64,000 bases of DNA from Deltaproteobacteria bacterium (GCA_030690165.1 JAUYHF010000007.1:131420-195419); one strand, 5' to 3'; counted from the first letter of the stretch, positions 4,896-48,572 are shown. Notes: a model not told the origin generated them from the sequence alone. A program made the numbers and translations.

Positions 4896-6086
4896 ATGAG
4901 CCCCTCAAATCTATCCATAAATGGTTTTAAATCAGCAGGCATCTGCTGCGGAATAAAGAAGGACGGGGGAAAAGACCTTGCCCTGATATATTCTGAATTG
5001 CCTGCCACTCTTGCAGGTGTGTTTACAAAAAATAAAATAAAGGCAGCGCCTGTCCTTATTGATATGCAGAGGATTAAAAAAGGTCTGTGTCAGGCAATAA
5101 TTATAAACAGCGGCAATGCCAATGCCTGCACAGGCAAAAAAGGCATGGAAGATGCAAAAAGCATGGTCGCGGCAGTCGAAGATGCGCTTGGAATAAAAAA
5201 GGGTTTTGCAATGGTCTCGTCAACAGGGGTTATTGGGCAGAGGCTCCCGATTGACAGGCTAAAAAAAGGCATTCCAAAACTTGTTTTCTCCCTTTCATCA
5301 AAAGGCTGGAATGATGCAGTTAATGCGATTATGACAACAGACGCATTTCCAAAGATTGCGTTTGAAAAATGCAGAATAGGCGGCAAAGATATTACTGTTT
5401 TAGGTATCGCCAAGGGCGCGGGTATGATATGCCCGAATATGGCTACTATGCTGGCATTTATCGTAACTGATGCAGAGGTAGAAAGAAAAACATTGCAATC
5501 GGCTTTGAAAAAAGCGGTTGACAAATCATTTAACTGCATAACAGTGGACGGAGATACATCAACTAATGATACTGTGTTGCTCATGGCCAATGGAAAAGCA
5601 GGGAATAAGCACTTTACAGTTCACAGTTCACAGTTCACACCTTTTTATCAGATGCTTGAAAAGGTCTGTCAGAGTCTTGCAAAGATGATTGTAAGGGATG
5701 GTGAAGGTGCAACAAAGCTATTGGAGTTTAATGTTAGCGGCGCAAAGACAGATAAAGACGCAAAAAAGATCGCAGAGACTGTTGCCAATTCGCCTCTTGT
5801 GAAGACGGCATTCTTTGGCGAGGATGCCAATTGGGGAAGAATAATTGCTGCAATAGGCCGTTCAGGCGCATATGTGAAAGAAGAAAAGATAAATATATAT
5901 TTCAATGGTGTGCCTGTTGTGTTAAGAGGTCTTGACGCAGACAGAGAAAGGGATGCGGCAAAGGCTGTTAAGAATGAGAATATATGCGTAAAGATTGAGA
6001 TGGGTTTGAGCAAAGGCAAAAAGACAGTCTGGGCAAGCGATCTGTCGTATGATTATGTAAAGATAAATGCGGCGTATAGAAGCTGA
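4896..6086 (+). CDS. argJ: bifunctional glutamate N-acetyltransferase / amino-acid acetyltransferase ArgJ
   Basis: ATMLAFIVTDA autoprocessing region, TVDGDTSTNDTV and DGEGATKLLE motifs; 396 aa; carries an in-frame CAGTTCA x3 heptamer array at 5617-5639. Confidence 0.9.
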   Translation: MSPSNLSINGFKSAGICCGIKKDGGKDLALIYSELPATLAGVFTKNKIKAAPVLIDMQRIKKGLCQAIIINSGNANACTGKKGMEDAKSMVAAVEDALGIKKGFAMVSSTGVIGQRLPIDRLKKGIPKLVFSLSSKGWNDAVNAIMTTDAFPKIAFEKCRIGGKDITVLGIAKGAGMICPNMATMLAFIVTDAEVERKTLQSALKKAVDKSFNCITVDGDTSTNDTVLLMANGKAGNKHFTVHSSQFTPFYQMLEKVCQSLAKMIVRDGEGATKLLEFNVSGAKTDKDAKKIAETVANSPLVKTAFFGEDANWGRIIAAIGRSGAYVKEEKINIYFNGVPVVLRGLDADRERDAAKAVKNENICVKIEMGLSKGKKTVWASDLSYDYVKINAAYRS

Positions 6087-6185: not shown

Positions 6186-6608
6186 ATGGAAGGTTTGGCA
6201 AAAGAGGCAGACAGGTGGTTTAGGCAGGCAGAGAATGATCTGAAGTCAGCAGGATGGAGCCAGCAGGGCGGTTTTTACGCGCATGCGTGTTTCTGGGCTC
6301 AACAAGGTGCTGCAAAGACGCTGCGGGCATTCCTGTTCATGCAAAAGGAGGATGCAAGGGAGACTCGTTCTGTCAGCGAACTCCTTGAAAGGTGCCTTAC
6401 ATACGATGAAGACTTTAAGGCAATTGTTGAATCCGGCAGCAGATTAGATATATATTACAAGACAAGCCGGTATCCTGACAGCCTTCCAGGCGGCATACCT
6501 GCCGAGATTATATCTGCCAGAGATTCCAAAGAGGCGATAAAGATCGCATCGGATATTTTTGCCCTTGTGGAGGAAAAGAGAAAGACGTATATTCCGGAAG
6601 TGATGTGA
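6186..6608 (+). CDS. HEPN domain protein, solo (no nucleotidyltransferase partner)
   Basis: 140 aa helical protein with the HEPN-family RYP signature (YYKTSRYPDSLPGG); own RBS GGAGG at 6176-6180; a position expected to be His is Arg (TRSV). Confidence 0.65.
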   Translation: MEGLAKEADRWFRQAENDLKSAGWSQQGGFYAHACFWAQQGAAKTLRAFLFMQKEDARETRSVSELLERCLTYDEDFKAIVESGSRLDIYYKTSRYPDSLPGGIPAEIISARDSKEAIKIASDIFALVEEKRKTYIPEVM

Positions 6609-10767: not shown

Positions 10768-11112
10768 TTGCAGGAGAGCCCCTTGAATAAAGAAGCAGAT
10801 GAGAAAGAGGTTTTATCAGAGCTAAAGCATGCCATTATGGAGATTTGCGGCAAACAGGTAGTCAGGTTTGTGCTTTACGGCTCAAGGGCAAGGGGGGATT
10901 ACGACAAAGAGTCGGATATAGACATAGCGATTGTTGTCAGGGGTATGACAAGAGAACTTAAAAACCGGATATTAGATGCTGTGTGTGACATAGAGATTAA
11001 ATATCTTACTCCCCTTTCAACTCTTGTCTTTTCCGAGGAGGATTTTGAGTTTCTGAAAAGCAGGGAGAGAAGGATAGCCCTCGATATCGAAAGGGAAGGG
11101 ATACCGTTATGA
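10768..11112 (+). CDS. minimal nucleotidyltransferase (MNT), antitoxin-like
   Basis: GSRARGDYDKESDIDIAIV is the GS-Xn-DxD nucleotidyltransferase motif; TTG start; overlaps the next ORF by 4 nt. Confidence 0.7.
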   Translation: MQESPLNKEADEKEVLSELKHAIMEICGKQVVRFVLYGSRARGDYDKESDIDIAIVVRGMTRELKNRILDAVCDIEIKYLTPLSTLVFSEEDFEFLKSRERRIALDIEREGIPL

Positions 11113-11513
11113 CGGAAGGGAATAAGAAAGACAATATCAAGATTCAACTTGAGAAGGCATCCGAAATTTTAAAAGAGGCAAATTTGCTTTTTGAGAATAA
11201 CCTTGTAAGAGGCGCAGTTTCAAGGCTCTATTACTATCTGCTTCACACTGTCCGGGCGCTCCTTCTCACCAAAGGGCTTGAACCCAAAAGCCACGAAGGG
11301 GTGTTGAGGGTTTTCGGGCAATATTTTATAAGAGAGGGGATACTGGAGGCAAGGTTTTCCCATATATTCGCAAGGCTGATGAAATACAGGGAGGAGGCTG
11401 ATTACAACCCTGCCTATGTCGTTTCAAAAGATGATTTTGTGGAGTTCAGAAAAGAGGCAGAGGTTATGTGTGACAAGATAAACAGTTATCTGAAGCAGAA
11501 GGGATATGCCTGA
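11109..11513 (+). CDS. HEPN domain protein, partner of the upstream MNT
   Basis: 134 aa helical protein, translationally coupled to MNT (ATGA overlap); typical MNT-HEPN gene order. Confidence 0.65.
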   Translation: MTEGNKKDNIKIQLEKASEILKEANLLFENNLVRGAVSRLYYYLLHTVRALLLTKGLEPKSHEGVLRVFGQYFIREGILEARFSHIFARLMKYREEADYNPAYVVSKDDFVEFRKEAEVMCDKINSYLKQKGYA

Positions 11514-12744: not shown

Positions 12745-14304
12745 ATGGATATTAAGAGTTATCAAGATTTAGAAGTATGGCAGAAGGCAATGGATTTAGT
12801 CATGGAGTGTTACCAAATGACAAAAACTTTTCCTAAAAGTGAAACCTATGGAATAGTCAGTCAATTACAGCGCGCGGCCGTATCTATTCCAGCCAATATT
12901 GCTGAAGGGAGAAGTCGTCAACATACAAAGGAGTTTATCCAACACCTATCTATAGCATATGGGTCGCTTGCAGAATTAGAAACTCATATTCTGCTTGCTG
13001 AACGTCTGAATTATATAGAGGAAGAACAGGTAAAGGGGATTATGTCACAGGCAGCAGAACTTGGTCGAATGTTTAATGGGTTGCAAAAATCTTTAAGGAA
13101 AAGGGTTCAGGGTTCAGAAAGCAATTCTCTTATATCCGATCCCCGACCCCTGATCCCTGACCCCTGTAACAAAGGTTTTTCTCTTGTTGAACTCTTAATA
13201 GCAATGGTTATTGCCTCTGTTGTGGGGTTGGCAGGGATTTCCATATTCTCATCCAGCAACTGGTCGTATAAGACGCAGGAGGATGTAACAGAGGCGCAAC
13301 AGAATGTAAGGGTTGCCACGGACAGGCTTACAAAGGACATAAGGATGGCTGGTTATGGCCTGCCTGACCCGCCGTTTTCGCTCTCCTTCACCGGTCTTCC
13401 AACCACATTTGTCGGTCAATCCGGCGGCAACATAACCTTGACTTCACCGATTACGGTCACAACCAGCGGCGGAGCAGGCGCCCCTGATAGTTTGACCATC
13501 CTTGGGATTGGGTATGAAGTTGGGACATTGGACACCACTACAGCGGTTGTTAATTGCGTCAATGGTATTCAGGCAAATATTAGCGGAGCTAACTGCATCC
13601 GACTCAGTGCCACTGCGAGCGTCCCTGCGGCTGATACAATTGATAGATTTTTCCCCGGGGGGGCGTTTAACAGTAATAGAATGCATATCAGCCTTGGAGG
13701 GGCAAAATACATAGCGCTTGCCGCGGCAGGCCAGACCGGTCAGGCTACCAGAACATTAGCATTGGGAAGCCCATCTACCCTTGATAGAGACTATCCTGAC
13801 GGCACGTCCGTTTATATCGTACAGGCAGTTCAATATACGATAGTATCGGATACTTCTATTGCAGGATGTTCAAGTTCAAATCCGTGTTTGATAAGTTTGG
13901 ATGCTACTGGACTCCGGGGAATGAACGGGGGAGCGCCTTCCAGACAACTCCTTGCTGAAAATATAGAGGACATTCAGTTTGCATACGGCATAGACGCAAA
14001 CCCAAGGGACAAGAAGATAGACGATACAGACGGGGATGGCTCGTTCGAGGGTCTGGATTATATATTCGCCGAGGCGGGCGATACCTTATCAGATCCGTCA
14101 AGCATAATAGTTGTTCGGGCAACTGTTGTGGGAAGGACAAGGAATACAGATATTAAAGGGCAGACTGGTTTTAAGGCGCAGTGTTTCGAAGACCGCCCTG
14201 TTGATGCCGGCACTACTAACTGCACAGGCGCGGCATCCGATGGTTACAGGCGAAGGATATTGACAAAGGTTATAAAGATAAGAAATCCTAAGACAGGGGC
14301 GTAA
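12745..14304 (+). CDS. pilW: single ORF: N-terminal four-helix-bundle protein (23S rRNA intervening-sequence protein / Avd-like family) fused in-frame to PilW-like minor pilin
   Basis: Residues 1-120 (SYQDLEVWQKAMDL ... PKSETYGIVSQLQRAAVSIPANIAEG ... YGSLAELETHILLAERL) match the four-helix-bundle family; after a repeat-encoded linker comes the prepilin motif G/FSLVELLIAMVIASVVG and a PilW-like body; no stop codon between the two parts. Confidence 0.6.
   Translation: MDIKSYQDLEVWQKAMDLVMECYQMTKTFPKSETYGIVSQLQRAAVSIPANIAEGRSRQHTKEFIQHLSIAYGSLAELETHILLAERLNYIEEEQVKGIMSQAAELGRMFNGLQKSLRKRVQGSESNSLISDPRPLIPDPCNKGFSLVELLIAMVIASVVGLAGISIFSSSNWSYKTQEDVTEAQQNVRVATDRLTKDIRMAGYGLPDPPFSLSFTGLPTTFVGQSGGNITLTSPITVTTSGGAGAPDSLTILGIGYEVGTLDTTTAVVNCVNGIQANISGANCIRLSATASVPAADTIDRFFPGGAFNSNRMHISLGGAKYIALAAAGQTGQATRTLALGSPSTLDRDYPDGTSVYIVQAVQYTIVSDTSIAGCSSSNPCLISLDATGLRGMNGGAPSRQLLAENIEDIQFAYGIDANPRDKKIDDTDGDGSFEGLDYIFAEAGDTLSDPSSIIVVRATVVGRTRNTDIKGQTGFKAQCFEDRPVDAGTTNCTGAASDGYRRRILTKVIKIRNPKTGA
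13141..13159. repeat. right 19-bp inverted repeat flanking the four-helix-bundle gene, inside the ORF
   Basis: CCCCGACCCCTGATCCCTG, encodes part of the linker DPRPLIPDP. Confidence 0.7.
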
Positions 14305-36781: not shown

Positions 36782-38236
36782 ATGATGAAGGCTGATGTAA
36801 TCTATAGATTAAAGAACGACCCTGTCATCAGGGCCGCGTTTGATGCTGTGAGCAGCGCCGGTGTAATGGCATACCTTGTAGGAGGGGCGCTGCGCAATCT
36901 TGTTTTATCAAGGCCATTAGGCTTTGATTATGATGTTGCGTTGGACAGCAAGGTTATGGACATGGCCAATCTTCTTGGTACAAGGCTGAAAGGAAGTCCT
37001 TTTTTGCTTGATAAAGCGCATGGGTCTTACAGGATAACCGTAAAACGGGATGGCGGCATATTTAATATTGACCTATCTCCATACAATGGGAAGGATATAT
37101 TGGAAGATTTAAACAATAGAGACTTTACAATAAATGCCATGGCTGTTGATATAAACGTCCTTTTTAGAAACAGGGATGTTGATTTGATAGATATTTTCAG
37201 CGGACAGACAGATGCGGAAAATAAAATAATAAGGGAGATTAAACCGGAGATATTTGATGATGATCCATTGCGGTTGCTCCGGGCAGTAAGGCTTTCAGCG
37301 CAATATGGCCTTATTATAGACAAGGAAACTGAAAGGCGCATAAAGACAAAGGCCGAACTCTTGACCACATCTTCATGGGAAAGGATAAGGGATGAGTTTT
37401 TTTTAATACTTGAGTGTCCGCAGTCAGTTAATTATGTGAAAGGGCTTTATGAACTCTCTTTGCTCCACGAAATTATCCCTGAGATCAGAGGGTGGAATGA
37501 TTTGGCAGGTTATAACCTCATATATCATGCATTTAAGACATTGGAGCAGGGGGAAGGGTTGGTCAATAACCTAAAGGCCTTTGTGCCGGAATTTGCCGGC
37601 AGCATTGATAATTCCTTTCAAATGCCCATTGGCAATGTCTCTAAAAAGGGATTATTCAAGCTTGCGCTTTTTATCCATGACGCAGGCAAGCCGGCAACGA
37701 TAAAACAGGAAGGAGAGAGAATGAGGTTTATAGGTCATGAGGTGGAGGGTGAAGGCGCCGGCAAACGGATAGGAAGGCGGTTGAAATTAAGCAGGGCTGC
37801 CGCGGCATTCATTTCAAGGCTTATCAGAAATCATCACAGGGTTTTTAATCTAGCGTCTCTTGAAAGATTAACTGACCGTTCTAAGGCGCATCTATTCAGG
37901 GCTATGGGGGGCAGGGCTGCGGGGGACTCGGATGGGCTTTTTCTTCTACTGCTTTCCCTTGCGGATGCCAGGGCTACCCGGGGCGGAGATGACCCTGAGT
38001 TCGCATCTTTTGTAAAAAGCCTCATTGATTTTTATTATAAGATTTATGCGGTAAAGAGGCCCCGGCCGATACTGAACGGAAATGAGGTTATGGAGATATT
38101 TGATGTTCCGGAGGGCGCTGTAGTGGGAAGGTTATTAAGAAAATTGGCAGAGGCTGAAGGCGGTGGGATTATAAAGAACAAGAGAGACGCTGTTAAATTT
38201 ATAAAGGATTTAATGGAAGCGTCAAAAGACGGATAG
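36782..38236 (+). CDS. CCA-adding enzyme / poly(A) polymerase family nucleotidyltransferase with HD domain
   Basis: Head domain LVGGALRNLVL ... DYDVA; HD-domain region FIHDAGKP ... GHE. Confidence 0.7.
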   Translation: MMKADVIYRLKNDPVIRAAFDAVSSAGVMAYLVGGALRNLVLSRPLGFDYDVALDSKVMDMANLLGTRLKGSPFLLDKAHGSYRITVKRDGGIFNIDLSPYNGKDILEDLNNRDFTINAMAVDINVLFRNRDVDLIDIFSGQTDAENKIIREIKPEIFDDDPLRLLRAVRLSAQYGLIIDKETERRIKTKAELLTTSSWERIRDEFFLILECPQSVNYVKGLYELSLLHEIIPEIRGWNDLAGYNLIYHAFKTLEQGEGLVNNLKAFVPEFAGSIDNSFQMPIGNVSKKGLFKLALFIHDAGKPATIKQEGERMRFIGHEVEGEGAGKRIGRRLKLSRAAAAFISRLIRNHHRVFNLASLERLTDRSKAHLFRAMGGRAAGDSDGLFLLLLSLADARATRGGDDPEFASFVKSLIDFYYKIYAVKRPRPILNGNEVMEIFDVPEGAVVGRLLRKLAEAEGGGIIKNKRDAVKFIKDLMEASKDG

Positions 38237-38392
38237 AGTTTTTTTCTATTTTGTGCTAACAGCCTTGGTGCCAAAATTATTGACTTTTTATATCAGGTAG
38301 GATAGATTGTTTTGAAAAAATAAATATCTAACAAGGAGGGACTTGCTGCTGTTTTTCTGTATAAAAAAAATGAAACAAAAGGAGATAGCGAG

Positions 38393-38890
38393 ATGGGAGA
38401 ATTAAAGGACACAAGGGCGGTAATTGAAACAAAATTTGGCAATATTGAGTTGAAGTTTTATCCGGATGTTGCGCCAAATCATGTGCAAAATTTTATAAAA
38501 CTTTCCAAAGAAGGTTTTTACGACGGCGCCATATTTCACAGGGTTATACCGGGTTTTATGATTCAAGGGGGGGATCCGAACACAAAGGGGGCGAATAAAA
38601 ATATTTATGGCACAGGCGGCCCTGGTTACAATGTGAAGGCTGAATTTAATAATATAAGCCATAAAAGAGGTATATTATCAATGGGGAGGTCGCAGCATCC
38701 AGACAGCGCAGGGTCACAGTTTTTTATAGTTGTTAAGGACTCTCAGTTTCTTGATCATGAGTATACCGTCTTCGGTGAGGTTGTGAATGGAATGGAAGCG
38801 GCGGATAAAATCGTCAATCTTCCGAGAGATTCAAGTGATATTCCTAACGAGCGGGTGGAGATGAAGGTTAAGATAATTGAGCAACCGTGA
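38393..38890 (+). CDS. peptidyl-prolyl cis-trans isomerase, cyclophilin type
   Basis: FHRVIPGFMIQGGDP and HTVFGEVVNGME motifs; 165 aa. Confidence 0.9.
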   Translation: MGELKDTRAVIETKFGNIELKFYPDVAPNHVQNFIKLSKEGFYDGAIFHRVIPGFMIQGGDPNTKGANKNIYGTGGPGYNVKAEFNNISHKRGILSMGRSQHPDSAGSQFFIVVKDSQFLDHEYTVFGEVVNGMEAADKIVNLPRDSSDIPNERVEMKVKIIEQP

Positions 38891-39570
38891 TGAAGAGAGT
38901 TTGGAAAATCAATTTTGTATCCTTCTTTTTTTTATTGCAATGTATTCTGCTTTCAGATATTGCTGCAAGCCAGAGCAATATCCTGGCGGTCGGCAGTTTT
39001 AATGGCTTGAAAGAAGGGACAGCGCCGGCTGAATGGGCAATAAAGGAATGGAAGGGCAAGGCAGATGTCCAGATTGTAAAGGACGAGGCAGGCCATGTTT
39101 TACGGCTAAGGAGCGAGAAAACATCCACTGCCTTATATAAGGAAATTGAGTTTAATATAAAAGATTATCCATTTCTTAACTGGCGCTGGAAGACAACAAA
39201 GATTCCGACAGGCGGCGATGTGAGGAAAAAAGATACAGACGACCAGGCTGCCCAGATATATGTCGTATTTCCCAAATTTCCATCTCAGATAAACAGCAGG
39301 ATGCTTGGATATATATGGGATACAAGCGCCCCGGCGGGAAGCGAGGTTACGAGCGCCAAATTATCCACAACCAGATATATTGTCCTTAAAAGCGGGGCAG
39401 GCGAGATCGGGAAATGGTTTGCAGAAAAGCGGAATATTTACGAGGATTACAAGAGGCTGTTTAACGAAGAGCCTCCAACAGTTGGAAGCATAGCGCTCAT
39501 GATAGATTCTGACGATACAAAGACCAGCGCAGAGAGTTTTTTTGACGATATATATTTTTCCAAAGAATAA
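38887..39570 (+). CDS. secreted protein of unknown function (DUF3047-like)
   Basis: Signal peptide; LNWRWK ... DDQAAQIYVVF ... GYIWDT pattern; overlaps PPIase stop by 4 nt. Confidence 0.4.
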   Translation: MMKRVWKINFVSFFFLLQCILLSDIAASQSNILAVGSFNGLKEGTAPAEWAIKEWKGKADVQIVKDEAGHVLRLRSEKTSTALYKEIEFNIKDYPFLNWRWKTTKIPTGGDVRKKDTDDQAAQIYVVFPKFPSQINSRMLGYIWDTSAPAGSEVTSAKLSTTRYIVLKSGAGEIGKWFAEKRNIYEDYKRLFNEEPPTVGSIALMIDSDDTKTSAESFFDDIYFSKE

Positions 39571-39627
39571 TCTTATTTTCTCCACACAACCATAATATTT
39601 TCTAATCTTACCCAATCGCATCTCTTT

Positions 39628-41592
39628 ATGCCCTTAATCATCGGCACAGCAGGACATATTGACCACGGCAAGACCAGCCTTATAAAGGCGCTCACCGGCA
39701 TGGATACCGACCGCCTGAAAGAGGAAAAGGAGCGCGGCATATCCATTGACTTGGGTTTTGCTTACCTTGATTTGCCTGATGGTACAAAGGCAGGGATTGT
39801 GGATGTGCCTGGCCATGAGAGATTTATAAGGAATATGTTGGCAGGGGCTACAGGCATTGACCTCGTTTTATTTGTTGTTGCCGCTGATGACGGCATAATG
39901 CCGCAGACAAGAGAGCATCTTGATATAATGCATCTCCTTGAAATCAAGAGCGGCATATTTGTAATTACAAAGATTGATTTGGTTGACGTCGGACAAATAA
40001 ATAAAGTATCAGAAGATATAAAAACGTTGACTAAAGATACCTGCCTTAAAGACTCGCCCATCATTTCAGTTTCCTCTGCAACAGGCTCCGGCATAGATAA
40101 TCTTAAAAATCTCATAATAAATGAAGCTGAAAAAATTTTACAAAGGCCCGAAGGCGGTTTTTTCAGGCTACCTATTGACCGCACATTTTCAATAAAGGGT
40201 TTTGGCGCTGTTGTTACAGGAACGGTTTTATCAGGTAATATAAATAAAAATGCCGATGCTGTTATCATTTCGAAACGGGCAACTGCTCCTAAAAAAGTGA
40301 AAATAAGAGGCATGCAGAGCCACTTCAAAGAGGTAAGCACAATAGCCGCAGGTCAGAGGGCTGCTATAAACTTAAGCGGTATATCTCATACAGACATTGA
40401 AAGAGGCAATATGCTCGTCTCTCCTGATATGGATATGATTACTGATATAGCTGATGTATCCTTTGAATTTCTGAATTCAACAAAAAAACCGATAAAAAAT
40501 TATTCAATCTTCAAGCTTTACCACATGACAGATGAAACTATGGCAAATGTATCATTTGCCGGTGTGAATGAGGTCCGCCCCGGCGCTAAGGTGTTTGGCC
40601 GGGTAAGACTAAAAGAGCCGATGGCTATGATGAGGAACGACAGATTCATATTAAGAGACCATGCCATAAACGCTACAATAGGCGGCGGCCGTGTGCTTCT
40701 CCCTTACCCCGAAAATGTAGCCGTAACCTTTATGTTGCGTGATAAACGCAGGCTAAAGCCTGCGACTACCCAAGATAGACAAAGGCAATATCAAGTTTTA
40801 GATAGTCAGGATTTAAGCAAAATTTTAATATCCATTTTATCAGACAAAGACACTTTTGGCATAGACAGTCATGCAATACGGCTTATGCTTAATATTTCTG
40901 AAAAGGGGCTTGAGGATCTTATAGCCTCTAACAAGGGGGAAGAGGAGATTGTCCTGATTGGCGGCAAATTAGTTTTGAAACAAAGGATTAATGAGATGGA
41001 ACAGGAGGTCATTCATATTATAAATAATTATCATAAGCAAATGCCCGGCGATATAGGGATTGAGGAAGATAATATGGCAAAGGCATTTAAAGGCGCTGTT
41101 CCTAAAGCAATTCTGCAGGTTGTATTGGGCGGTCTTATAAATTGTGGTAAGATTGCCAGAACCGGCAAGGTATTCAGCCTGCCGTCATACAGGCGCGTAA
41201 CTCAGGGATTGGATAAGGAGATAGAGGATGCAATTTTATCGGCATTTTCCAGCAGGCATTTTGATCCGGTTAAAATGGACGAGGCTCTGCAATCCCATTC
41301 CTGTAAAAAAGAAGATATAAAAAAGGTATTTCAACTTCTCATCAAAAGAGGTATTGTTGTCAAGATTACAGAAGACAGCTATATCTCTCAGGCTAAGTTG
41401 GATGAGGCTAAAGATAAGCTGACAAGATGGGTTGATGATAAAGGAAAAATAAAGGCCGCAGAGTTCCGTGATGTTCTCGGCTGCGGAAGAAAATTTGCCA
41501 TAGAGCTTCTGGAATATTTTGATAAAGAAAAGATTACGCTGAGAAGCGGGGATTATAGGGTGTTAAGAAAAACATTAAGCGCTAAGCAGTGA
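39628..41592 (+). CDS. selB: selenocysteine-specific translation elongation factor SelB
   Basis: N-terminus [21 protein letters not shown] ... [15 protein letters not shown] ... TKID colinear with SelB; long C-terminal extension; 654 aa. Confidence 0.9.
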
Positions 41593-41639
41593 ACAATTGT
41601 TTCCCTCTCCCCTTGCGGGAGAGGGGAGGGGTATAAATA

Positions 41640-42686
41640 ATGGCTCCAGGCCGTAAGATAAAACTTACAAGCTACGCATCCTGCGCGGGTTGAGCGGCTA
41701 AAATGGGGCATGATGCCCTGGCGCAGGTTCTGCGCCATTTGCCAAAGGTTGTGGACAGGAATCTCATTGTAGGCGCTGAACATGCCGACGATGCAGGGGT
41801 GTATAAACTTACTGACGAATTGGCGGTTATAAATACGCTTGACTTTTTCCCGCCAGTTATAGATGACCCATATACATTTGGCCAGATAGCCGCCGCAAAT
41901 GCCCTAAGCGATGTATATGCAATGGGCGGGGCGCCGAGGCTTGCTATGAATATCGTTGCTTTTCCGGCAGACCTTGACATTTCAATACTTCAGGAAATTA
42001 TAATCGGCAGCACGGATAAATTAAAAGAGGCTGGGGTTATTCTTATCGGCGGTCATTCCATAGAGGATAAAGAGATAAAATATGGGCTATCTGTTACAGG
42101 TCTTATACATCCTGAAAAGGTTGTAACAAATGCCGGGGCTAATCCCGGAGATAAACTTATCCTGACAAAACCTATTGGCACCGGCATTATAACAACGGCG
42201 TTGAAAAGGGGAAAGATAAAACCTGATGAGGTTATGGAGGTCATTCTTTCTATGAAGACTTTGAATGATAAAGCTTCTGTTGTTATGCAGGAGGTTGGAG
42301 TAAATGCCTGCACAGATATTACAGGGTTCGGCCTCCTTGGCCATGCAATGGGAATGGCAGAGGCAAGCAGTGTCAGCATGACATTTAAGATAAAAGACAT
42401 ACCCTTCTTTCCAAAGGCGCTTCAACTTGTCAAAAAAAGCGCCAACCATCCAAAGATAATCAAATCAAACAGGGAATATCTATCTCCCAATGTAAAGATG
42501 TCCGATGAGATTACCCCTGAACAGGCAAATCTCTTATACGACCCGCAGACCTCCGGAGGGCTTTTAATATCCGTGCCTTTCGAAAGGCTTCAACAGTTGA
42601 TAGAACGTCTTTCTGCTGCTAAAATTTTAGGCGCAGTAATCGGGGAGGTTGCGGAAAAGAGGACACCTGTTATTGTTGTTGAGTAA
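41640..42686 (+). CDS. selD: selenide, water dikinase SelD with predicted selenocysteine (in-frame UGA at 41691-41693)
   Basis: ATG 41640 is in frame with track ORF 41703-42686 through a single TGA: MAPGRKIKLTSYASCAG-U-AAKMGHDALAQVL; the U aligns with the catalytic Cys/Sec of SelD; downstream DITGFGLLGH and YDPQTSGGLL motifs; hairpin 41719-41737 is a candidate SECIS. Confidence 0.85.
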
Positions 42687-42746
42687 GGGGCAGTCTTTTG
42701 CTTTAGAGAGTCGTATCGTAAAATTGTCAGAAAAAGGAGTGAATAT

Positions 42747-44501
42747 ATGAAAAAAGAAATAACGTTTGTATCAGCAATGATTGTATTCGGGGCAGCTATT
42801 GGTATAGGTATTATATCTATTATAGTTGCAATTGCAGCGCCTGATCTTGTAAAAACACTTTTGACGTTTCAGGAAAAGGCTGATTTTGAGCTGATGCGGC
42901 GAAAGGCCGGCTGGATAATTGAACATATTTATTTCATCAAGTATTCGCTCCTCTTCATAGCAATCTTTACCCTTATCTTGTTTCTCGTAAACTTGAACCC
43001 TCACGTAAAAAATAAGCTGAAGTTAAAATATCCTGGACTAAAATTTCTGGTGATTTTTCTGGGGGTTCTTGCCTGTTTCATTCTTCTGATATTTACCGGC
43101 GATAGAATTTCTAATTTGTTGAATTTTGATATTCAATCGCCGAATGCGGCAAATTTTCTTATTTTCTCATTTACCACAGGACTCTTATGGTTTATTGTTG
43201 GGGAGATGGGCTGGGCAGGCGATTTCTCATCATGGAAGATGGGGGTTGCAGGAGGGGAGAATAGGCCTGTTGCGGCGTTTATTTTAGGAACTGTTGTCGG
43301 CAGCGCTGTCTACGGTCTGTCCTTTCTCTATAATTGGACATTCAATAAGTACTTCATACTGGTTTCAGAGGTGCTTGATCAGTCCGGCGAAACCTCGTAT
43401 CTTGGATTCAAACTCCTGGCACATGAATTGATATTTACGACTGCAATTTCTCTTGGAATCATTGCTGGTCTTATCGTAGCGCTTGCCCCGGTTTACAGGA
43501 CATGGTGCCAGAGATTACAATGGCTTATATTGCCGGTTGCTCTATCGACAGTTCTTGCGGTGGTTATTTTTGCCGTATACACGAATGCCGCAAAAAAATA
43601 TGACCTTGGCAAAAAAGACCTTGCTCAGGCAGCAGGGGTGCCGGATAAGGCAATGGAGAGCCTGACCCTTGTTTTATTAAAGCAGGATATGGCAGCGGTG
43701 CAGGAATGGCCTTTGCAGGCGCGGGGATCGGGTTTTGTTTCCATGAGTACTGTGGCAGCAACTGGAGAAAGCCTCAAGAGGATTGAAGACTACCTTGCTG
43801 AACATAAAGAGGGTTCAGTATTCACCTATGCTGCGCAAGATGCGCTCATAAGAGGACATCATGTGATGTGGAATTTAGAAAAAGGGGTTGAATATCAGTT
43901 TCGGTATGCGGGGCAGTCGTTTCTTAATCGCATGGTGTTACTCTCCCGTCTCCGCTATCTTCCTGTGACTCCAAAGAATCTTGCCTATCTCAAGGCGTTT
44001 TCTGACGAGACCAAGTGGTATGTGGGCAAGGACGCCTGCCTTAGGATTGCGGAGGCATTTATGCATTTTGGAATGACAAAAGAGGCCCAAGACTGGGTAA
44101 ATAAGGGGAAAGAGCGCGGCGCGGATATGTCCAAGGCTGGATTTCTCAAGGATGAAGTTCTTACCCAGGGGAGGATAAAAGGGAGAGTTATTATAAACGG
44201 AATGGCGAATGTCAGCACAAAAGTAGCGCTCATGCGTCAGGATTATAAAATCGATAAGATCGAGGACGGTGCGCTTATTCATAAACTTGTTGATGTCCAG
44301 GGAATCGACAAAGACGGCAGTTTTACATTCAGCAATATAGGGAAGGGGGATTACCTGCTTATTATTGTAGCTGATAAGAATATCATCCCCTATGCTATTG
44401 CGTCTAACAAATTAAAGGTAAAAAATCTCTCAGGTCCTGTAAAGATTGATATAAATAGGCCGACGATGGATTTAGGAACCGTGAACATAGTTACTCAATA
44501 G
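42747..44501 (+). CDS. polytopic membrane protein of unknown function with C-terminal beta-sandwich-like domain
   Basis: About 8 predicted TM helices in the first 300 aa; C-terminal 110 aa resemble a carboxypeptidase-regulatory-like fold; no catalytic motif recognised. Confidence 0.4.
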   Translation: MKKEITFVSAMIVFGAAIGIGIISIIVAIAAPDLVKTLLTFQEKADFELMRRKAGWIIEHIYFIKYSLLFIAIFTLILFLVNLNPHVKNKLKLKYPGLKFLVIFLGVLACFILLIFTGDRISNLLNFDIQSPNAANFLIFSFTTGLLWFIVGEMGWAGDFSSWKMGVAGGENRPVAAFILGTVVGSAVYGLSFLYNWTFNKYFILVSEVLDQSGETSYLGFKLLAHELIFTTAISLGIIAGLIVALAPVYRTWCQRLQWLILPVALSTVLAVVIFAVYTNAAKKYDLGKKDLAQAAGVPDKAMESLTLVLLKQDMAAVQEWPLQARGSGFVSMSTVAATGESLKRIEDYLAEHKEGSVFTYAAQDALIRGHHVMWNLEKGVEYQFRYAGQSFLNRMVLLSRLRYLPVTPKNLAYLKAFSDETKWYVGKDACLRIAEAFMHFGMTKEAQDWVNKGKERGADMSKAGFLKDEVLTQGRIKGRVIINGMANVSTKVALMRQDYKIDKIEDGALIHKLVDVQGIDKDGSFTFSNIGKGDYLLIIVADKNIIPYAIASNKLKVKNLSGPVKIDINRPTMDLGTVNIVTQ

Positions 44502-44546
44502 ACATTTCTTGACGCAGCTTTTATTTGTTTTTACAAAACTAAGTTT

Positions 44547-45848
44547 ATGGCCGACAAATTTGACTGCATAATCATTGGCGCCGGTCCTTCCGGCATTGCC
44601 TGCGCATACACTCTGGCAAAGGCAGGGCTGAATGTTATGGTCTTTGAACGGGGAGAATATCCCGGCTCAAAAAATGTCTCAGGCGGGGTTTTGTATTCAA
44701 CCATCCTCAATAAACTCATCCCTGAATTTTGGAAAGATGCGCCTGTGGAAAGGCATGTGGCAAAGCGAAGATATTCCATACTCTCAAAGGATTCTGAGAT
44801 GGCTGTGGAATTAAGTTTTGACAGTTTCAATAACCCTCCCTACAACAACAGCTTCACAGTATTGCGCGCAAAATTTGACAGGTGGTTTGCAAAAAAAGCA
44901 GAGGATGCAGGGGCATTTATATTGACTGAAACAGTGGTCGATGATTTCATCTTTGAGAATGGAAAGATTATCGGGGTTAAGGCGAGGAGGGAGGGTGGCG
45001 ATGTTCTTGCAGATGTGGTTGTTTGCGCAGAAGGCGCAAATTCTCTCCTTGCAGAAAAGGCGGGCCTCAGGAAAAAACCTACAGACCATCAGATGATAAC
45101 CGCTGCCAAAGAGGTCATAAGCCTTCCACGTGAGGCTATAGAAGATAGATTCGGCTTGTCTGATGATGAAGGTGTGACCATAGAGTTTTTCGGCGACGCT
45201 GTTAAAGGGATGATAGGCTCAGGTTTTATCTATACCAATAAAGATTCACTATCCGTTGGTGTTGGCTGTCCCATAGCAGTTATGAAAGAAAATAATATGC
45301 GTCCCAATGATCTTCTTGATGCGTTCAAGTCACATCCGGTGGTAAGAAAGTTTTTAAGGGGAGGGAAGACCGAAGAATTGTCCGCAAAGATGATCCCTGA
45401 ATTGGGCTGCAAGAATCTCTCAAAATTTGCTGCCAATGGTTTACTCATTGTCGGAGATGCGGCAGGTTTGGTAAATCCGTCTCTTTATCGTGAAGGCTCC
45501 AATATGGCGATGGCGTCAGGTGTAATGGCAGCAGAGACGATTCTTGAGGCAAAGAAGAAAAGTAATTTTTCAGAATCGGCGCTGAGCGGGTTTACAAAGA
45601 GATTAAATGACAGCTTCGTTATGAAAGATTTAAAAAGATACGGCGATACGCCGAAGAAGTTATCTGCAATGCCTCAATTTTTCAAAGAATATCCTGATGC
45701 GATTCTAAAAATGGCAGAAGGATATTTCACAATATCAGACATGCCAAAAAAAGAAATGCAGAAACAGGCATGGTCTGCTTTTAAGGACAAGGTCTCTGTA
45801 TGGAGATTTCTGTGGGATATGTATAAGGCAAAGGGGTCGATTCTTTGA
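44547..45848 (+). CDS. fixC: FAD-dependent ETF-quinone oxidoreductase FixC-like
   Basis: FDCIIIGAGPSGIACA FAD fold and GSKNVSGGVLY motif; 433 aa. Confidence 0.75.
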   Translation: MADKFDCIIIGAGPSGIACAYTLAKAGLNVMVFERGEYPGSKNVSGGVLYSTILNKLIPEFWKDAPVERHVAKRRYSILSKDSEMAVELSFDSFNNPPYNNSFTVLRAKFDRWFAKKAEDAGAFILTETVVDDFIFENGKIIGVKARREGGDVLADVVVCAEGANSLLAEKAGLRKKPTDHQMITAAKEVISLPREAIEDRFGLSDDEGVTIEFFGDAVKGMIGSGFIYTNKDSLSVGVGCPIAVMKENNMRPNDLLDAFKSHPVVRKFLRGGKTEELSAKMIPELGCKNLSKFAANGLLIVGDAAGLVNPSLYREGSNMAMASGVMAAETILEAKKKSNFSESALSGFTKRLNDSFVMKDLKRYGDTPKKLSAMPQFFKEYPDAILKMAEGYFTISDMPKKEMQKQAWSAFKDKVSVWRFLWDMYKAKGSIL

Positions 45849-45902: not shown

Positions 45903-45930
45903 TTGTTTAAAACAGGTTGTTTGATATAAT
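45903..45930 (+). promoter_or_regulatory. sigma-70-like promoter with extended -10 for the antitoxin gene
   Basis: TTGTTT, 16-nt spacer, TGATATAAT; RBS AAAGGAGG 45937-45944 before ATG 45950. Confidence 0.4.
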
Positions 45931-45949
45931 CTCCCAAAAGGAGGCAACA

Positions 45950-46180
45950 ATGGTTAAGACATTGCATGCAGTCTATGAACATGGGATATTGAGGCCTTTG
46001 GAGCCGATAGACGATATTGAGGAGAACGCAGAAGTAGAATTGACTCTGAGCATAGAAAAGAAAGTCATTCATCCTATTTTAAGGTTTGCCGGCATATTGA
46101 AGGAAGAAGAGGCAAATCAGATGATGAAGACCGTAGACGATGAGTTTGAGAGGGTTAATCCTGATGAATGGAAAGATTAG
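45950..46180 (+). CDS. small antitoxin-like protein, probable VapB-type partner of the PIN toxin
   Basis: 76 aa; MVKTLHAVYEHGILRPLEP ... AEVELT pattern; overlaps the downstream PIN ORF. Confidence 0.5.
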   Translation: MVKTLHAVYEHGILRPLEPIDDIEENAEVELTLSIEKKVIHPILRFAGILKEEEANQMMKTVDDEFERVNPDEWKD

Positions 46181-46455
46181 CCTTGACACAAATATCGTAA
46201 TACGGCTGTTTAAAAATGATAAAGCTGTTACAAATCTCCTTTCGCGTAACTCAACGATATATCTGCATCCTGAATATTACAAGAAAGACAGCCGATCCAT
46301 ATTCTGCCATCAGATTACAGCTAAAACAAAAAGGGCGTCCAATCCCTGAAAATGACCTATGGATAGCGGCAGTCTGTATTGAAAACAGTCTTCCAATAAT
46401 CACGGCCGATGCGCATTTTGATGACGTTGATGGGTTGGAGGTTGTCAAAATATAA
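46164..46455 (+). pseudogene. PIN-domain (VapC-like) toxin, frameshifted and shortened
   Basis: N-terminal part (ISLDTNIVIRL) is in one frame to 46349; C-terminal part (ENDLWIAAVCIENSLPIITADAHFDDVDGLEV) is in the +1 frame to 46455; combined length about 97 aa is short for PIN. Confidence 0.5.
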
Positions 46456-46632
46456 ATGTTAGTAACGAAGGGCTGAGACTATGCCCGCCAAATGCGGAAA
46501 CGATGATGGAAGAGGGCAAAAGGAATATAGAAGGGCTGGTGGAGAGGTCCAATTTCTTTTTTAGCTATAGAATAAGCTGGTACTTTGATATAGAATGGAG
46601 AAAAATACTAATAATTTAGGGGGTGATTTATA

Positions 46633-46815
46633 ATGAGAGCCACTGCACAAAAAGTTAATCCAGAGGATTTTATCCTTTCGGCCCTTTCTCCAGAGGATCG
46701 GCTCGATGCGGCATTTGAGATTGCTCGCGAGGCGTTCAAAAAGACTCGTTTGACAATGAAAGATATTGATAATGCGGTTAAATCAGTAAGGAGCAAGGCT
46801 TACGAAAAGTTGTAG
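46633..46815 (+). CDS. small orphan addiction-module antitoxin-like protein
   Basis: 60 aa; LSALSPEDRLDAAFEIA resembles a putative addiction-module component family; RBS AGGGGGTG; no toxin follows. Confidence 0.3.
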   Translation: MRATAQKVNPEDFILSALSPEDRLDAAFEIAREAFKKTRLTMKDIDNAVKSVRSKAYEKL

Positions 46816-46856
46816 GGTGGTCACAGCCCACCGGATAAGGAATACAGCATGGATTA

Positions 46857-46941
46857 GGGAGAGGTTCCGCAGGGATGGTGAAGGATAAAGGGATTGGGGT
46901 TGCGATGGTGGAGGGGGATAAGATAGTCACCTGTTTTTATC
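46857..46941. repeat. 85-bp direct repeat, copy A
   Basis: GGGAGAGGTTCCGCAGGGATGGTGAAGGATAAAGGGATTGGGGTTGCGA ... TTTTTATC; about 50-nt core nearly identical to 47687-47768. Confidence 0.7.
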
Positions 46942-47001
46942 ATTTTTGAAACAATAATTTTTAGATATAGTGCTAACAAAGATATTATTAGGAGGTGTCC
47001 T

Positions 47002-47277
47002 ATGACGGTCATTGATTTGGTGGCAAAAGAATTTCATATGAACCCCAAAGAGGTTATAAAGGAAAGCATCGGCACGTATCTGCATCAGAAATTGTCGAAA
47101 GTTGAGGCAGACATCTTCACAATTGCTAAGAAACACGGCGTAAAAGATGTTTTTGAACTTGATGAAAAAATAAAAAAGGGGCTTATCAGCGAAAAGGATT
47201 CATATGATGACTATTTTGCCCTTGACAATCTTGAAGCGGAAAGGGAAAGGACCAAGAAGCTTCTGGAGAAAATTTGA
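47002..47277 (+). CDS. small acidic protein, first gene of a two-gene cassette
   Basis: 91 aa; strong RBS AGGAGG; stop overlaps next start (TGATG). Confidence 0.4.
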   Translation: MTVIDLVAKEFHMNPKEVIKESIGTYLHQKLSKVEADIFTIAKKHGVKDVFELDEKIKKGLISEKDSYDDYFALDNLEAERERTKKLLEKI

Positions 47278-47636
47278 TGCCTTCAATCCACGATCTGGAG
47301 AGGATTGCTGAGATAGAATTCGCTGACATTGTAGCCGGGACTATATTTATTAACCACAAGCTTAGAATATTTCTGACAGATAGCAGCTTTATAGATGTCA
47401 ACCTTTCGCAGAGGCTCCCAGATAAATTCGGTTTCCATTGGGAACGAATGAATAAGGCCGGCGAGGTATTCCGCTACGATAATTTCCCTGATCCAAGCTG
47501 GAAGAATGTCAGCACCTATCCATACCACTTTCATAACAGCGCACAAGAAGGAGTAGAGGCGGCACCTTTTCCGTTGGATGTCATAAAAGGTTTCAGGGCG
47601 TTCATGGAATTTGTTAGAAATAAAGTAAAGGAATGA
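47274..47636 (+). CDS. uncharacterized protein with FHWE ... RYDN ... HFH motifs, putative toxin-like partner
   Basis: 120 aa; translationally coupled to the upstream ORF; family assignment from memory only. Confidence 0.4.
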   Translation: MMPSIHDLERIAEIEFADIVAGTIFINHKLRIFLTDSSFIDVNLSQRLPDKFGFHWERMNKAGEVFRYDNFPDPSWKNVSTYPYHFHNSAQEGVEAAPFPLDVIKGFRAFMEFVRNKVKE

Positions 47637-47686
47637 AAGAGAGTTGGCTGGGATTGCCAGCAGGATGAGAGATATAGAAGGACAGA

Positions 47687-47768
47687 GGGAGAGGTTACGC
47701 AGGGATGGTGAAGGATAAAGGGTTGGGGTTGCGAGGGGTGAGAAGAGTAATCGGTTACGTTTTTTATC
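47687..47768. repeat. 85-bp direct repeat, copy B
   Basis: GGGAGAGGTTACGCAGGGATGGTGAAGGATAAAGGGTTGGGGTTGCGA ... TTTTTTATC. Confidence 0.7.
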
Positions 47769-47777
47769 TAAAAAATT

Positions 47778-48572
47778 ATGAAAACTGAAGAAGATAAATT
47801 TAAACACGAAATAGATATTTTCCGAACTGAAGTCGAATCTGGCATACAATTCTTCTATATGTATCTGGCATTTAATTCCGTCCTTAGTAAGAATAAACAA
47901 GCTCTAAAAATAGTAAATCGAACGCCTTTATTTTGGAACACGAATGTTGGTGCTCTACAGACCTCTTTTTTTATCGTATTGGGACGACTTTTTGACCAAA
48001 ACTCCAACCACAATGTTGATAGGTTGATAGGAGTTGCCCAAAAGCATTCTGATATTTTTTCTGCAGAGGCATTGGAAGTTCGTAAGCGAGCAGGGAGTGC
48101 AAATGCAGGTGAATGGATAAATGACTACATGAAAGACGTTTATGTCCCAACTAACGATGACTTCAGACGCCTGAGAAAATATGTTAGCAAGTATCGCAAA
48201 ATTTATGAGAACACATATCGGGATATAAGGCACAAGGTATATGCTCATAAAGTGCTATCAAATAAGGCTGATGTGCATAATTTATTTGCACGGACCAACA
48301 TTCGTGAAATACAAAAACTATTGATTTTTCTGAATCGAGTTCATGAAGCTCTTTGGCAACTTTTCCATAATGGTCGCAAACCTACATTGAGGGCAATGAA
48401 ATACTCAGTCAGTAGTATTATGAAAAATGTTCTGGCTCCAGAATGGCAAAGCCGACAGATTCAAGAACTGGTGGTGCATGAGACCCAAAAGTTTTTCGAC
48501 ATATTATTATCTATACCCAATAAGCGAGAACAGGAAAAGGACAGGACACTCTACAGGTTGAAGGAACAGTAA
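47778..48572 (+). CDS. uncharacterized protein, possible HEPN-like (Abi-type) defence protein
   Basis: 264 aa, mostly helical; R-x5-H motif RDIRHKVYAH; sits in an accessory islet; assignment tentative. Confidence 0.35.
   Translation: MKTEEDKFKHEIDIFRTEVESGIQFFYMYLAFNSVLSKNKQALKIVNRTPLFWNTNVGALQTSFFIVLGRLFDQNSNHNVDRLIGVAQKHSDIFSAEALEVRKRAGSANAGEWINDYMKDVYVPTNDDFRRLRKYVSKYRKIYENTYRDIRHKVYAHKVLSNKADVHNLFARTNIREIQKLLIFLNRVHEALWQLFHNGRKPTLRAMKYSVSSIMKNVLAPEWQSRQIQELVVHETQKFFDILLSIPNKREQEKDRTLYRLKEQ

Follow-up and report, generated by a model that had tools for sequence, protein, structure and literature searches.

We analysed a 64,000-nucleotide stretch of an uncultured Deltaproteobacteria metagenome-assembled genome (MAG; GCA_030690165.1, JAUYHF010000007.1:131420-195419), called the window below, and studied a selenophosphate synthetase gene (selD) that follows selB, the gene of the selenocysteine-specific elongation factor. 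The selD frame starts at ATG 41640, runs through 17 sense codons to an in-frame TGA at 41691-41693 and is then open to the TAA at 42684-42686, as seen in both the sequence and its translation. Two adjacent hairpins lie within the coding sequence shortly after the TGA. The evidence presented here makes it very probable that 41640-42686 is a complete selenophosphate synthetase gene with selenocysteine (Sec) at catalytic residue 18, the insertion of which is directed through SelB by a SECIS (selenocysteine insertion sequence). The features of the gene itself are:

41640..42686, + strand: full-length selD (selenide, water dikinase), 348 codons including Sec18, stop TAA 42684-42686
41625..41631, + strand: Shine-Dalgarno (SD)-like GGAGGGG, 8-10 nt upstream of ATG 41640, read from the sequence
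41691..41693, + strand: in-frame UGA, assigned as catalytic Sec18 in the N-terminal glycine-rich loop from the Cys alignment and TGA conservation
41700-41702, + strand: Lys21, the partner catalytic lysine, aligned with E. coli Lys20

Reading frame, homology and conservation of the UGA

The peptide across the UGA is MAPGRKIKLTSYASCAG-U-AAKMGHDALAQVLRHL. An earlier interpretation of this DNA made without database searches (the sequence-only reading) had joined ATG 41640 through a single TGA to a shorter open reading frame (ORF) and had given the same peptide; our translation agrees on both points. The shorter frame is the one found in the mechanical ORF list, where selD opens only at the internal Met (ATG 41703) and has 327 codons. 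That the ORF track cuts the gene at this Met, as the sequence-only reading had remarked, is seen a second time on Logan contig L001 (run SRR13727534), where selD is called as 327 residues from the internal Met, an exact match to the window product. The SelB product of L001 is likewise identical to that of the window. On exact look-up, the truncated 327-residue selD product was present only as this Logan call, which suggests, without proving it, that the NCBI record annotates selD differently. No SD comparable to that at 41625-41631 could be read before the internal ATG 41703. The correct gene model is 41640-42686 with Sec at codon 18, and the truncation at an internal Met by ORF callers is a familiar annotation artefact.

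For homology searches, the UGA of the 348-residue product was substituted by Cys. The product scored 384.7 bits with TIGR00476, the SelD equivalog (cutoff 125; 3e-115; residues 8-313), and 324.1 bits with NF002098 (cutoff 299), and Pfam PF00586 (AIRS) and PF02769 (AIRS_C) matched the called product. It matched the Aquifex aeolicus SelD chains 2yye/2zod from end to end (7e-73) and E. coli SelD 3u0o over residues 6-337 (5e-64), and the alignment to solved SelD structures covered residues 7-338. By these family scores the product is a complete SelD, and its predicted activity is to make selenophosphate from selenide with ATP. The N-terminal segment was also tested for homology to SelD: the TIGR00476 match begins at residue 8, that is, upstream of the UGA, and the motif flanking the UGA aligns, with S-C-A-G-U-A-A-K lying over S-S-G-C-A-A-K in 2yye and G-A-G-C-G-C-K in 3u0o. 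From these alignments U18 corresponds to E. coli Cys17 and K21 to E. coli Lys20, so the UGA does fall on the catalytic Cys/Sec of selenophosphate synthetase, as had been claimed from the sequence alone. Both Cys17 and Lys20 are essential for catalysis in E. coli SelD, as is established from mutants. Since K21 precedes M22, a product begun at Met22 would be devoid of both, and this is the cost of the truncated annotation.

We then compared relatives, scanning one genome per species and keeping the 80 closest loci (labelled L in the following), in which the homologous codon was placed by tblastn. This codon was TGA in 79/80 loci and TGT (Cys) in 1/80; the TGT locus (L073, a Vicinamibacterales MAG) holds the sole Cys form among the relatives. 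The in-frame upstream peptide R/K-L-T-x5-G-U-A-x-K was conserved in all 80 loci. The nearest relatives by identity were L002 (80%), L003 (77%), L004 and L005 (both 60%), of which L002 and L003 are groundwater or sediment MAGs labelled Deltaproteobacteria. All four have a start codon (ATG or TTG) aligned with 41640 and a purine-rich SD ahead of it, and their changes upstream of the UGA are largely synonymous. The conserved start and SD, the retained in-frame peptide and the preponderance of synonymous changes lead us to conclude that the N-terminal extension is translated and under purifying selection. With TGA in 79/80 loci, the Cys alignment and the SelD profile, the proposal that this selD is a selenoprotein gene with an in-frame UGA is well supported.

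One related locus (L070, a Desulfatiglandales MAG) carries two UGA-containing SelD-like genes in tandem, at 6052 and 7521, the second with the motif G-G-G-U-G-T-K-L-G-P-G-D-L.

Two hairpins downstream of the UGA

Hairpin positions are counted from the U of the UGA as position 1. Two hairpins follow the UGA within the selD frame:

41705..41719 (positions 15-29), + strand: proximal hairpin A, GGGGCA-UGA-UGCCCU, 6 bp, 3-nt loop, −7.8 kcal/mol, beginning 11 nt after the UGA
41719..41737 (positions 29-47), + strand: distal hairpin B, UGGCGCAG-GUU-CUGCGCCA, 8 bp, loop GUU at 41727-41729, −12.9 kcal/mol

Hairpin B is written over codons L-A-Q-V-L-R-H, and its first base lies 26 nt after the A of the UGA, with 25 nt between them. 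Hairpin A, which is present in both the minimum free energy (MFE) and the centroid structure, directly abuts hairpin B, and the two together reach −21.3 kcal/mol. The sequence-only reading had named a hairpin with a GTT loop, 26 nt downstream of the UGA, as a candidate SECIS. Structure prediction recovered that hairpin at 41719-41737 with −12.9 kcal/mol; the proximal hairpin at 41705-41719 had been overlooked.

The bacterial SECIS (bSECIS) model, which PMC13188914 (Fig. 2A) summarises from Zhang & Gladyshev 2005, allows 3-9 nt in the apical loop and 4-16 bp in the upper stem, sets the MFE at −7.5 kcal/mol or below, and asks for G as the first or second loop nucleotide, with G or U usually coming next, and for 16-37 nt between the UGA and the loop. 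Hairpin B agrees with the model throughout (loop GUU, 8 bp, G37 then U38, 33 nt from 41694 to 41726, −12.9 kcal/mol). Hairpin A agrees with it minimally (loop UGA, 6 bp, 17 nt from 41694 to 41710, −7.8 kcal/mol), its G standing at loop position 2 but being followed by A, the minimal form of that rule. We also used the SECIS of E. coli fdhF for comparison, the sequence of which was confirmed at genes annotated as fdhF in 5419/5426 E. coli genomes. From position 15 onwards it is ...GGUUGCAGGUCUGCACC..., with G23/U24 in the loop.

When the same peptide was recoded synonymously with the codon usage of the window, full hairpin B (8/8 pairs) arose in 0.22% of the recodings (P = 0.0022), full hairpin A (6/6 pairs) in 6.5% (P = 0.065) and both in 0.014%. 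Across 81 sequences, comprising the 80 related loci and the window's own sequence (L001), pairing in hairpin B was bimodal: 32 sequences had 8/8 pairs and most others had 5 or fewer, with a few at 6-7. An ungapped alignment of the 32 genes with 8/8 pairs served as the covariation set. In it, 5/8 pairs of hairpin B change on both sides, pair 33-43 occurs as six pair types and pair 30-46 as four, and none of 500 shuffles attained the covariation observed. With the partner shifted by 1-3 columns, the share of standard pairs over the two helices combined fell from 84% to 25-52%. Neither G37 nor U38 varies among the 32 genes. For hairpin B, the recoding test, the bimodality and the diversity of pair types are not circular. 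RNAalifold, applied to the five closest genes picked by protein identity only, recovered both hairpins. The spacer (positions 10-28) was more structured in the 32 genes than in synonymous recodings (mean z −2.95; 22/32 at p≤0.05), and nearly all of them have some small hairpin between positions 10 and 28. Its fit to the bSECIS model and its covariation thus support hairpin B as the candidate SECIS originally put forward.

Several of the compensatory changes in hairpin B alter the protein. GCG...CGC (Ala..Arg) is replaced by AUG...CAU (Met..His) in L005, by GCA...UGY (Ala..Cys) in many Bacillota, by GCC...GGU (Ala..Gly) in L013 and by GCU...AGC (Ala..Ser) in L034. The SelD residue pair Ala/Met...Arg/Cys/Gly/Ser/His co-varies because both codons pair in hairpin B (columns 31-33 and 43-45). 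RNA pairing thus dictates some of the amino-acid changes in the N-terminal region of SelD (A/M..R/C/G/S/H), which makes this a clean case of RNA structure constraining protein.

In the 49 SelD genes that lack hairpin B, the sole conserved structure is a strong hairpin in the register of hairpin A (GGUCC-GGG-GGACC over I-G-P-G-D-L); a lower stem with the UGA in it often surrounds this hairpin, and this is the canonical layout. Some genes with hairpin B (L009, L019, L037 and L059-L063) lack a register-A hairpin and show instead only a 4-bp stem displaced upstream. The occurrence of two SECIS layouts across 80 SelD genes is the mildly new, comparative part of our results. Hairpin B is the strongest candidate for the SECIS stem-loop that SelB binds. 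Hairpin A is likely to be an accessory or spacer stem and is possibly an alternative SelB site.

The Cys-encoding gene of L073 keeps 7/8 pairs of hairpin B (499-560; P = 0.014 under recoding). This hairpin looks like a fossil SECIS left after Sec-to-Cys conversion.

selB, the proposed mechanism and alternative readings

Two features lie directly upstream of selD:

39628..41592, + strand: selB, selenocysteine-specific elongation factor, 654 aa, own stop TGA 41590-41592
41600..41628, + strand: GC-rich intergenic hairpin UUUCCCUCUCCC-CUUGC-GGGAGAGGGGAG, the 3' arm of which overlaps the selD SD (GGAGG 41625-41629)

The ORF 39628-41592 scored 368.8 bits with TIGR00475 (selB; cutoff 242; 5.4e-110), carries the Pfam domains GTP_EFTU, Beta-barrel_SelB and WHD_3rd_SelB (winged-helix) and has the same sequence as NCBI MDP2681591.1, a protein annotated as selenocysteine-specific translation elongation factor, from a Deltaproteobacteria MAG contig of 258,792 bp. 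The neighbourhood of selB and selD noted in the sequence-only reading is therefore real: an intact selB ends 47 nt before the selD start. The selB-selD order is kept in L002, L005, L047, L066, L068 and L034, and L003 and L004 have partial upstream selB matches that are cut by the contig end. RNAfold gave −22.0 kcal/mol for 41598-41634, which contains the intergenic hairpin, and L002 has a similar pair of C/U-rich and G/A-rich arms at this site. No intrinsic terminator was scored on the + strand between selB and selD, and with no T-run after it the hairpin is not a typical one. It possibly couples selD translation to selB or affects mRNA stability.

We propose the following course of events. 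Ribosomes, probably translating a co-transcript of selB and selD, would initiate at ATG 41640. When the UGA (41691-41693) enters the A site, SelB carrying GTP and Sec-tRNA(Sec) would be held at the mRNA entrance by the SECIS inside the next 15 codons and would deliver selenocysteine in place of release-factor termination. The SECIS would consist of the two adjacent stem-loops, the distal loop B with its apical, fdhF-like G-U being the presumed SelB contact, and the folded proximal hairpin A would shorten the effective distance between the UGA and loop B. Where selenium is lacking, termination would yield a peptide of only 17 residues. Because SelD makes the selenium donor for charging tRNA(Sec), its synthesis would depend on its own product, which would amount to positive feedback on selenium availability.

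Several observations weigh against this interpretation. Of selA, selB and tRNA-Sec, which complete Sec machinery comprises, the window shows selB only: ARAGORN reported 0 tRNAs and Rfam no tRNA-Sec in the 64 kb, and Pfam and NCBIfam searches of all long ORFs in the window gave no SelA. The folding energy of the 76-nt stretch was not unusual against dinucleotide shuffles (z = −0.33). Rfam, run with gathering thresholds on the whole window and permissively on 41600-41800 and 38000-45000, gave no SECIS or tRNA-Sec family, and its only hits were spurious sub-threshold matches to the intergenic hairpin, with none on hairpins A and B. The figure of 100% paired for the 32 genes is circular, because the set was chosen for hairpin B pairing; the sequences are related, and the recoding nulls used uniform or window codon usage. 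Spacing from the UGA is critical for the E. coli SECIS, and the G-U of hairpin B lies at positions 37-38 as against 23-24 in fdhF, 14 nt further away. Finally, hairpin A alone also falls within the formal bSECIS model, so the assignment of SelB to hairpin B is presumptive.

Some of these points carry limited weight. Folding energy alone was uninformative here, which is why the synonymous-recoding and comparative tests were used. A tRNA-Sec lies within 6 kb of selD in 13/54 related loci scanned, Bacillota and Dehalococcoidia loci among them, and none was found within this distance in the window's four closest relatives; with only 13/54 such loci, the absence of tRNA-Sec from the window says little. 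We also looked in the window for a selC embedded in selB, an arrangement reported for some lineages (PMC13188914), and did not find one.

How the two hairpins divide the work is less certain than the recoding itself. A two-part SECIS is conceivable, though we advance it only tentatively: hairpin A would be a selected folding spacer that places the distal G-U loop within reach of SelB, or both hairpins would be usable, the family would have switched between proximal-only and proximal-plus-distal forms, and a lineage labelled Deltaproteobacteria would carry the Clostridiales type. Somewhat less likely still, hairpin A (41705-41719) is itself the element bound by SelB, and hairpin B is an additional conserved mRNA structure, serving for example to slow the ribosome or to stabilise the fold. 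The start of hairpin A, exactly 11 nt after the UGA, has the spacing of the minimal fdhF SECIS, the hairpin conforms to the formal bSECIS model (6 bp, 3-nt loop, G at position 2, 17 nt, −7.8 kcal/mol), and in the 49 genes without hairpin B the register-A hairpin is the sole conserved structure. However, hairpin A has a UGA or AUGAY loop in which A, and not the usual G/U, comes after the G, and its pairing in the window goes only weakly beyond what the peptide dictates (P = 0.065). The hairpin-B genes that have no register-A hairpin (L009, L019, L037, L059-L063) speak against it as well, as does the presence of hairpin B with G37 and U38 in all 32. In the passages of Mariotti 2015 that deal with the tandem type, stem2 alone was judged to fit the bSECIS (PMC4561486).

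The preferred reading, Sec insertion at UGA 41691-41693, also has to be set against a true stop at this codon, with selD beginning at ATG 41703 (327 residues) and the 17 upstream codons being untranslated or an unrelated leader peptide. Standard gene callers give exactly the 41703 model, and selA and selC were not found within the 64-kb window. Nonetheless, we consider a true stop very improbable. The product from Met22 would have neither the Sec/Cys nor the Lys needed for catalysis, judged by what is known of E. coli mutants. From residue 8 on, the upstream segment fits the SelD profile, and it is kept in frame across 80 loci; the SD and start at 41640 are conserved, with no comparable SD before 41703, and an intact, dedicated selB adjoins the gene.

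Reassignment of UGA in the genetic code was rejected, since TGA ends 14/44 window genes, selB included, and the standard code leaves ORFs of as many as 1927 codons unbroken. A scan of the window for ORFs joined through one TGA gave no convincing candidate for a further selenoprotein gene besides selD.

Least credible of all is a TGA that arose by assembly or sequencing error, by a pseudogenising change of a Cys codon or as a codon for another amino acid under an altered code: a single-base change from TGY to TGA would suffice and L073 does have TGT, but an independent Logan assembly (SRR13727534) with identical SelB and the same 327-residue call is consistent with the same TGA, this codon is TGA in 79/80 related genes spread over many phyla, TGA is an ordinary stop in the window with its long ORFs intact, and a covarying SECIS would have no reason to exist.

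Elsewhere in the window, a 584-residue ORF with a hydrophobic N-terminus lies directly downstream of selD (42747-44501, + strand); Pfam and NCBIfam gave no match for it, and none of the 80 related selD loci has a homologue. A small islet of toxin-antitoxin or defence-like type (45917-48572), composed of an AF2212-like ORF, a TumE toxin and HEPN_AbiU2, is situated between FixC-like oxidoreductase and thiolase genes, and HEPN-domain ORFs also occur at 6186-6608 and 11109-11513, within the first 12 kb. Inside a type IV pilus cluster (pilM-N-O-P-Q, PilY1, GspH-like), one ORF (12745-14304, + strand) combines an N-terminal 23S rRNA intervening sequence protein/bAvd-like domain with a PilW-like minor pilin that has its own N-methylation motif at residues 142-163. 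This ORF is probably two genes read as one, or contains an inserted gene.

Comparison with known selenophosphate synthetases and SECIS elements

The window gene shares with E. coli SelD (3U0O) the catalytic Lys and the AIRS/AIRS_C fold. The E. coli enzyme has Cys (UGC) at the catalytic position and does not need recoding, whereas the window gene has UGA/Sec and for this reason needs SelB, tRNA-Sec and a SECIS. The Sec-containing SelD proteins of bacteria such as A. aeolicus and Haemophilus influenzae are closer: they belong to the same enzyme family and have the N-terminal G-U-A-x-K loop, Sec at the position of E. coli Cys17 and an in-frame bSECIS after the UGA. We see no essential differences from these; the present copy comes from an uncultured Deltaproteobacteria MAG. 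Native A. aeolicus SelD is said to have Sec at the catalytic site (reportedly by Itoh et al. 2009), and the deposited chains 2yye/2zod show Cys there.

SelD is the second most widespread prokaryotic selenoprotein family (PMC13188914), and most Deltaproteobacteria and Clostridia have Sec-SelD, according to the sections of PMC4561486 and PMC13188914 on this family. A Sec-containing SelD with a bSECIS is a common and well-described arrangement, and the present case is correct and ordinary in this respect. The gene indicates that the organism uses selenocysteine and that its selenium-donor enzyme itself depends on selenium, as is already known to be the rule among Deltaproteobacteria and Clostridia.

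The window element and the SECIS of E. coli fdhF are both stem-loops within the coding sequence that follow closely on the UGA and have G-U in the loop. The apical strings of hairpin B (GCAGGUUCUGC) and fdhF (GCAGGUCUGC) are nearly identical, and hairpin A shares its starting point, position 15 (11 nt after the UGA), with the minimal fdhF hairpin. Apart from the more distant G-U, hairpin B differs from fdhF by a triloop (or pentaloop) in place of the tetraloop and by the lack of a bulged U, and in the window a separate proximal hairpin occupies the canonical position.

The closest structural counterpart appears to be the SelD bSECIS of Clostridiales, in which, as Supplement S6 of Mariotti 2015 words it (PMC4561486, Fig. 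SM6.1A), stem2 lies downstream of stem1 and is not nested in it, and stem2 alone fits the bSECIS. The tandem layout of the window and of the 32 hairpin-B genes, mostly Bacillota, resembles this type, the structural identity being judged from the text description. For Deltaproteobacteria, the corresponding text describes two stem-loops with stem2 within the arms of stem1 (PMC4561486); the window gene, from a lineage labelled Deltaproteobacteria, differs in this from the group whose name it bears. The tandem layout is thus already known from that description of Clostridiales SelD, and its occurrence in a lineage labelled Deltaproteobacteria is a small extension.

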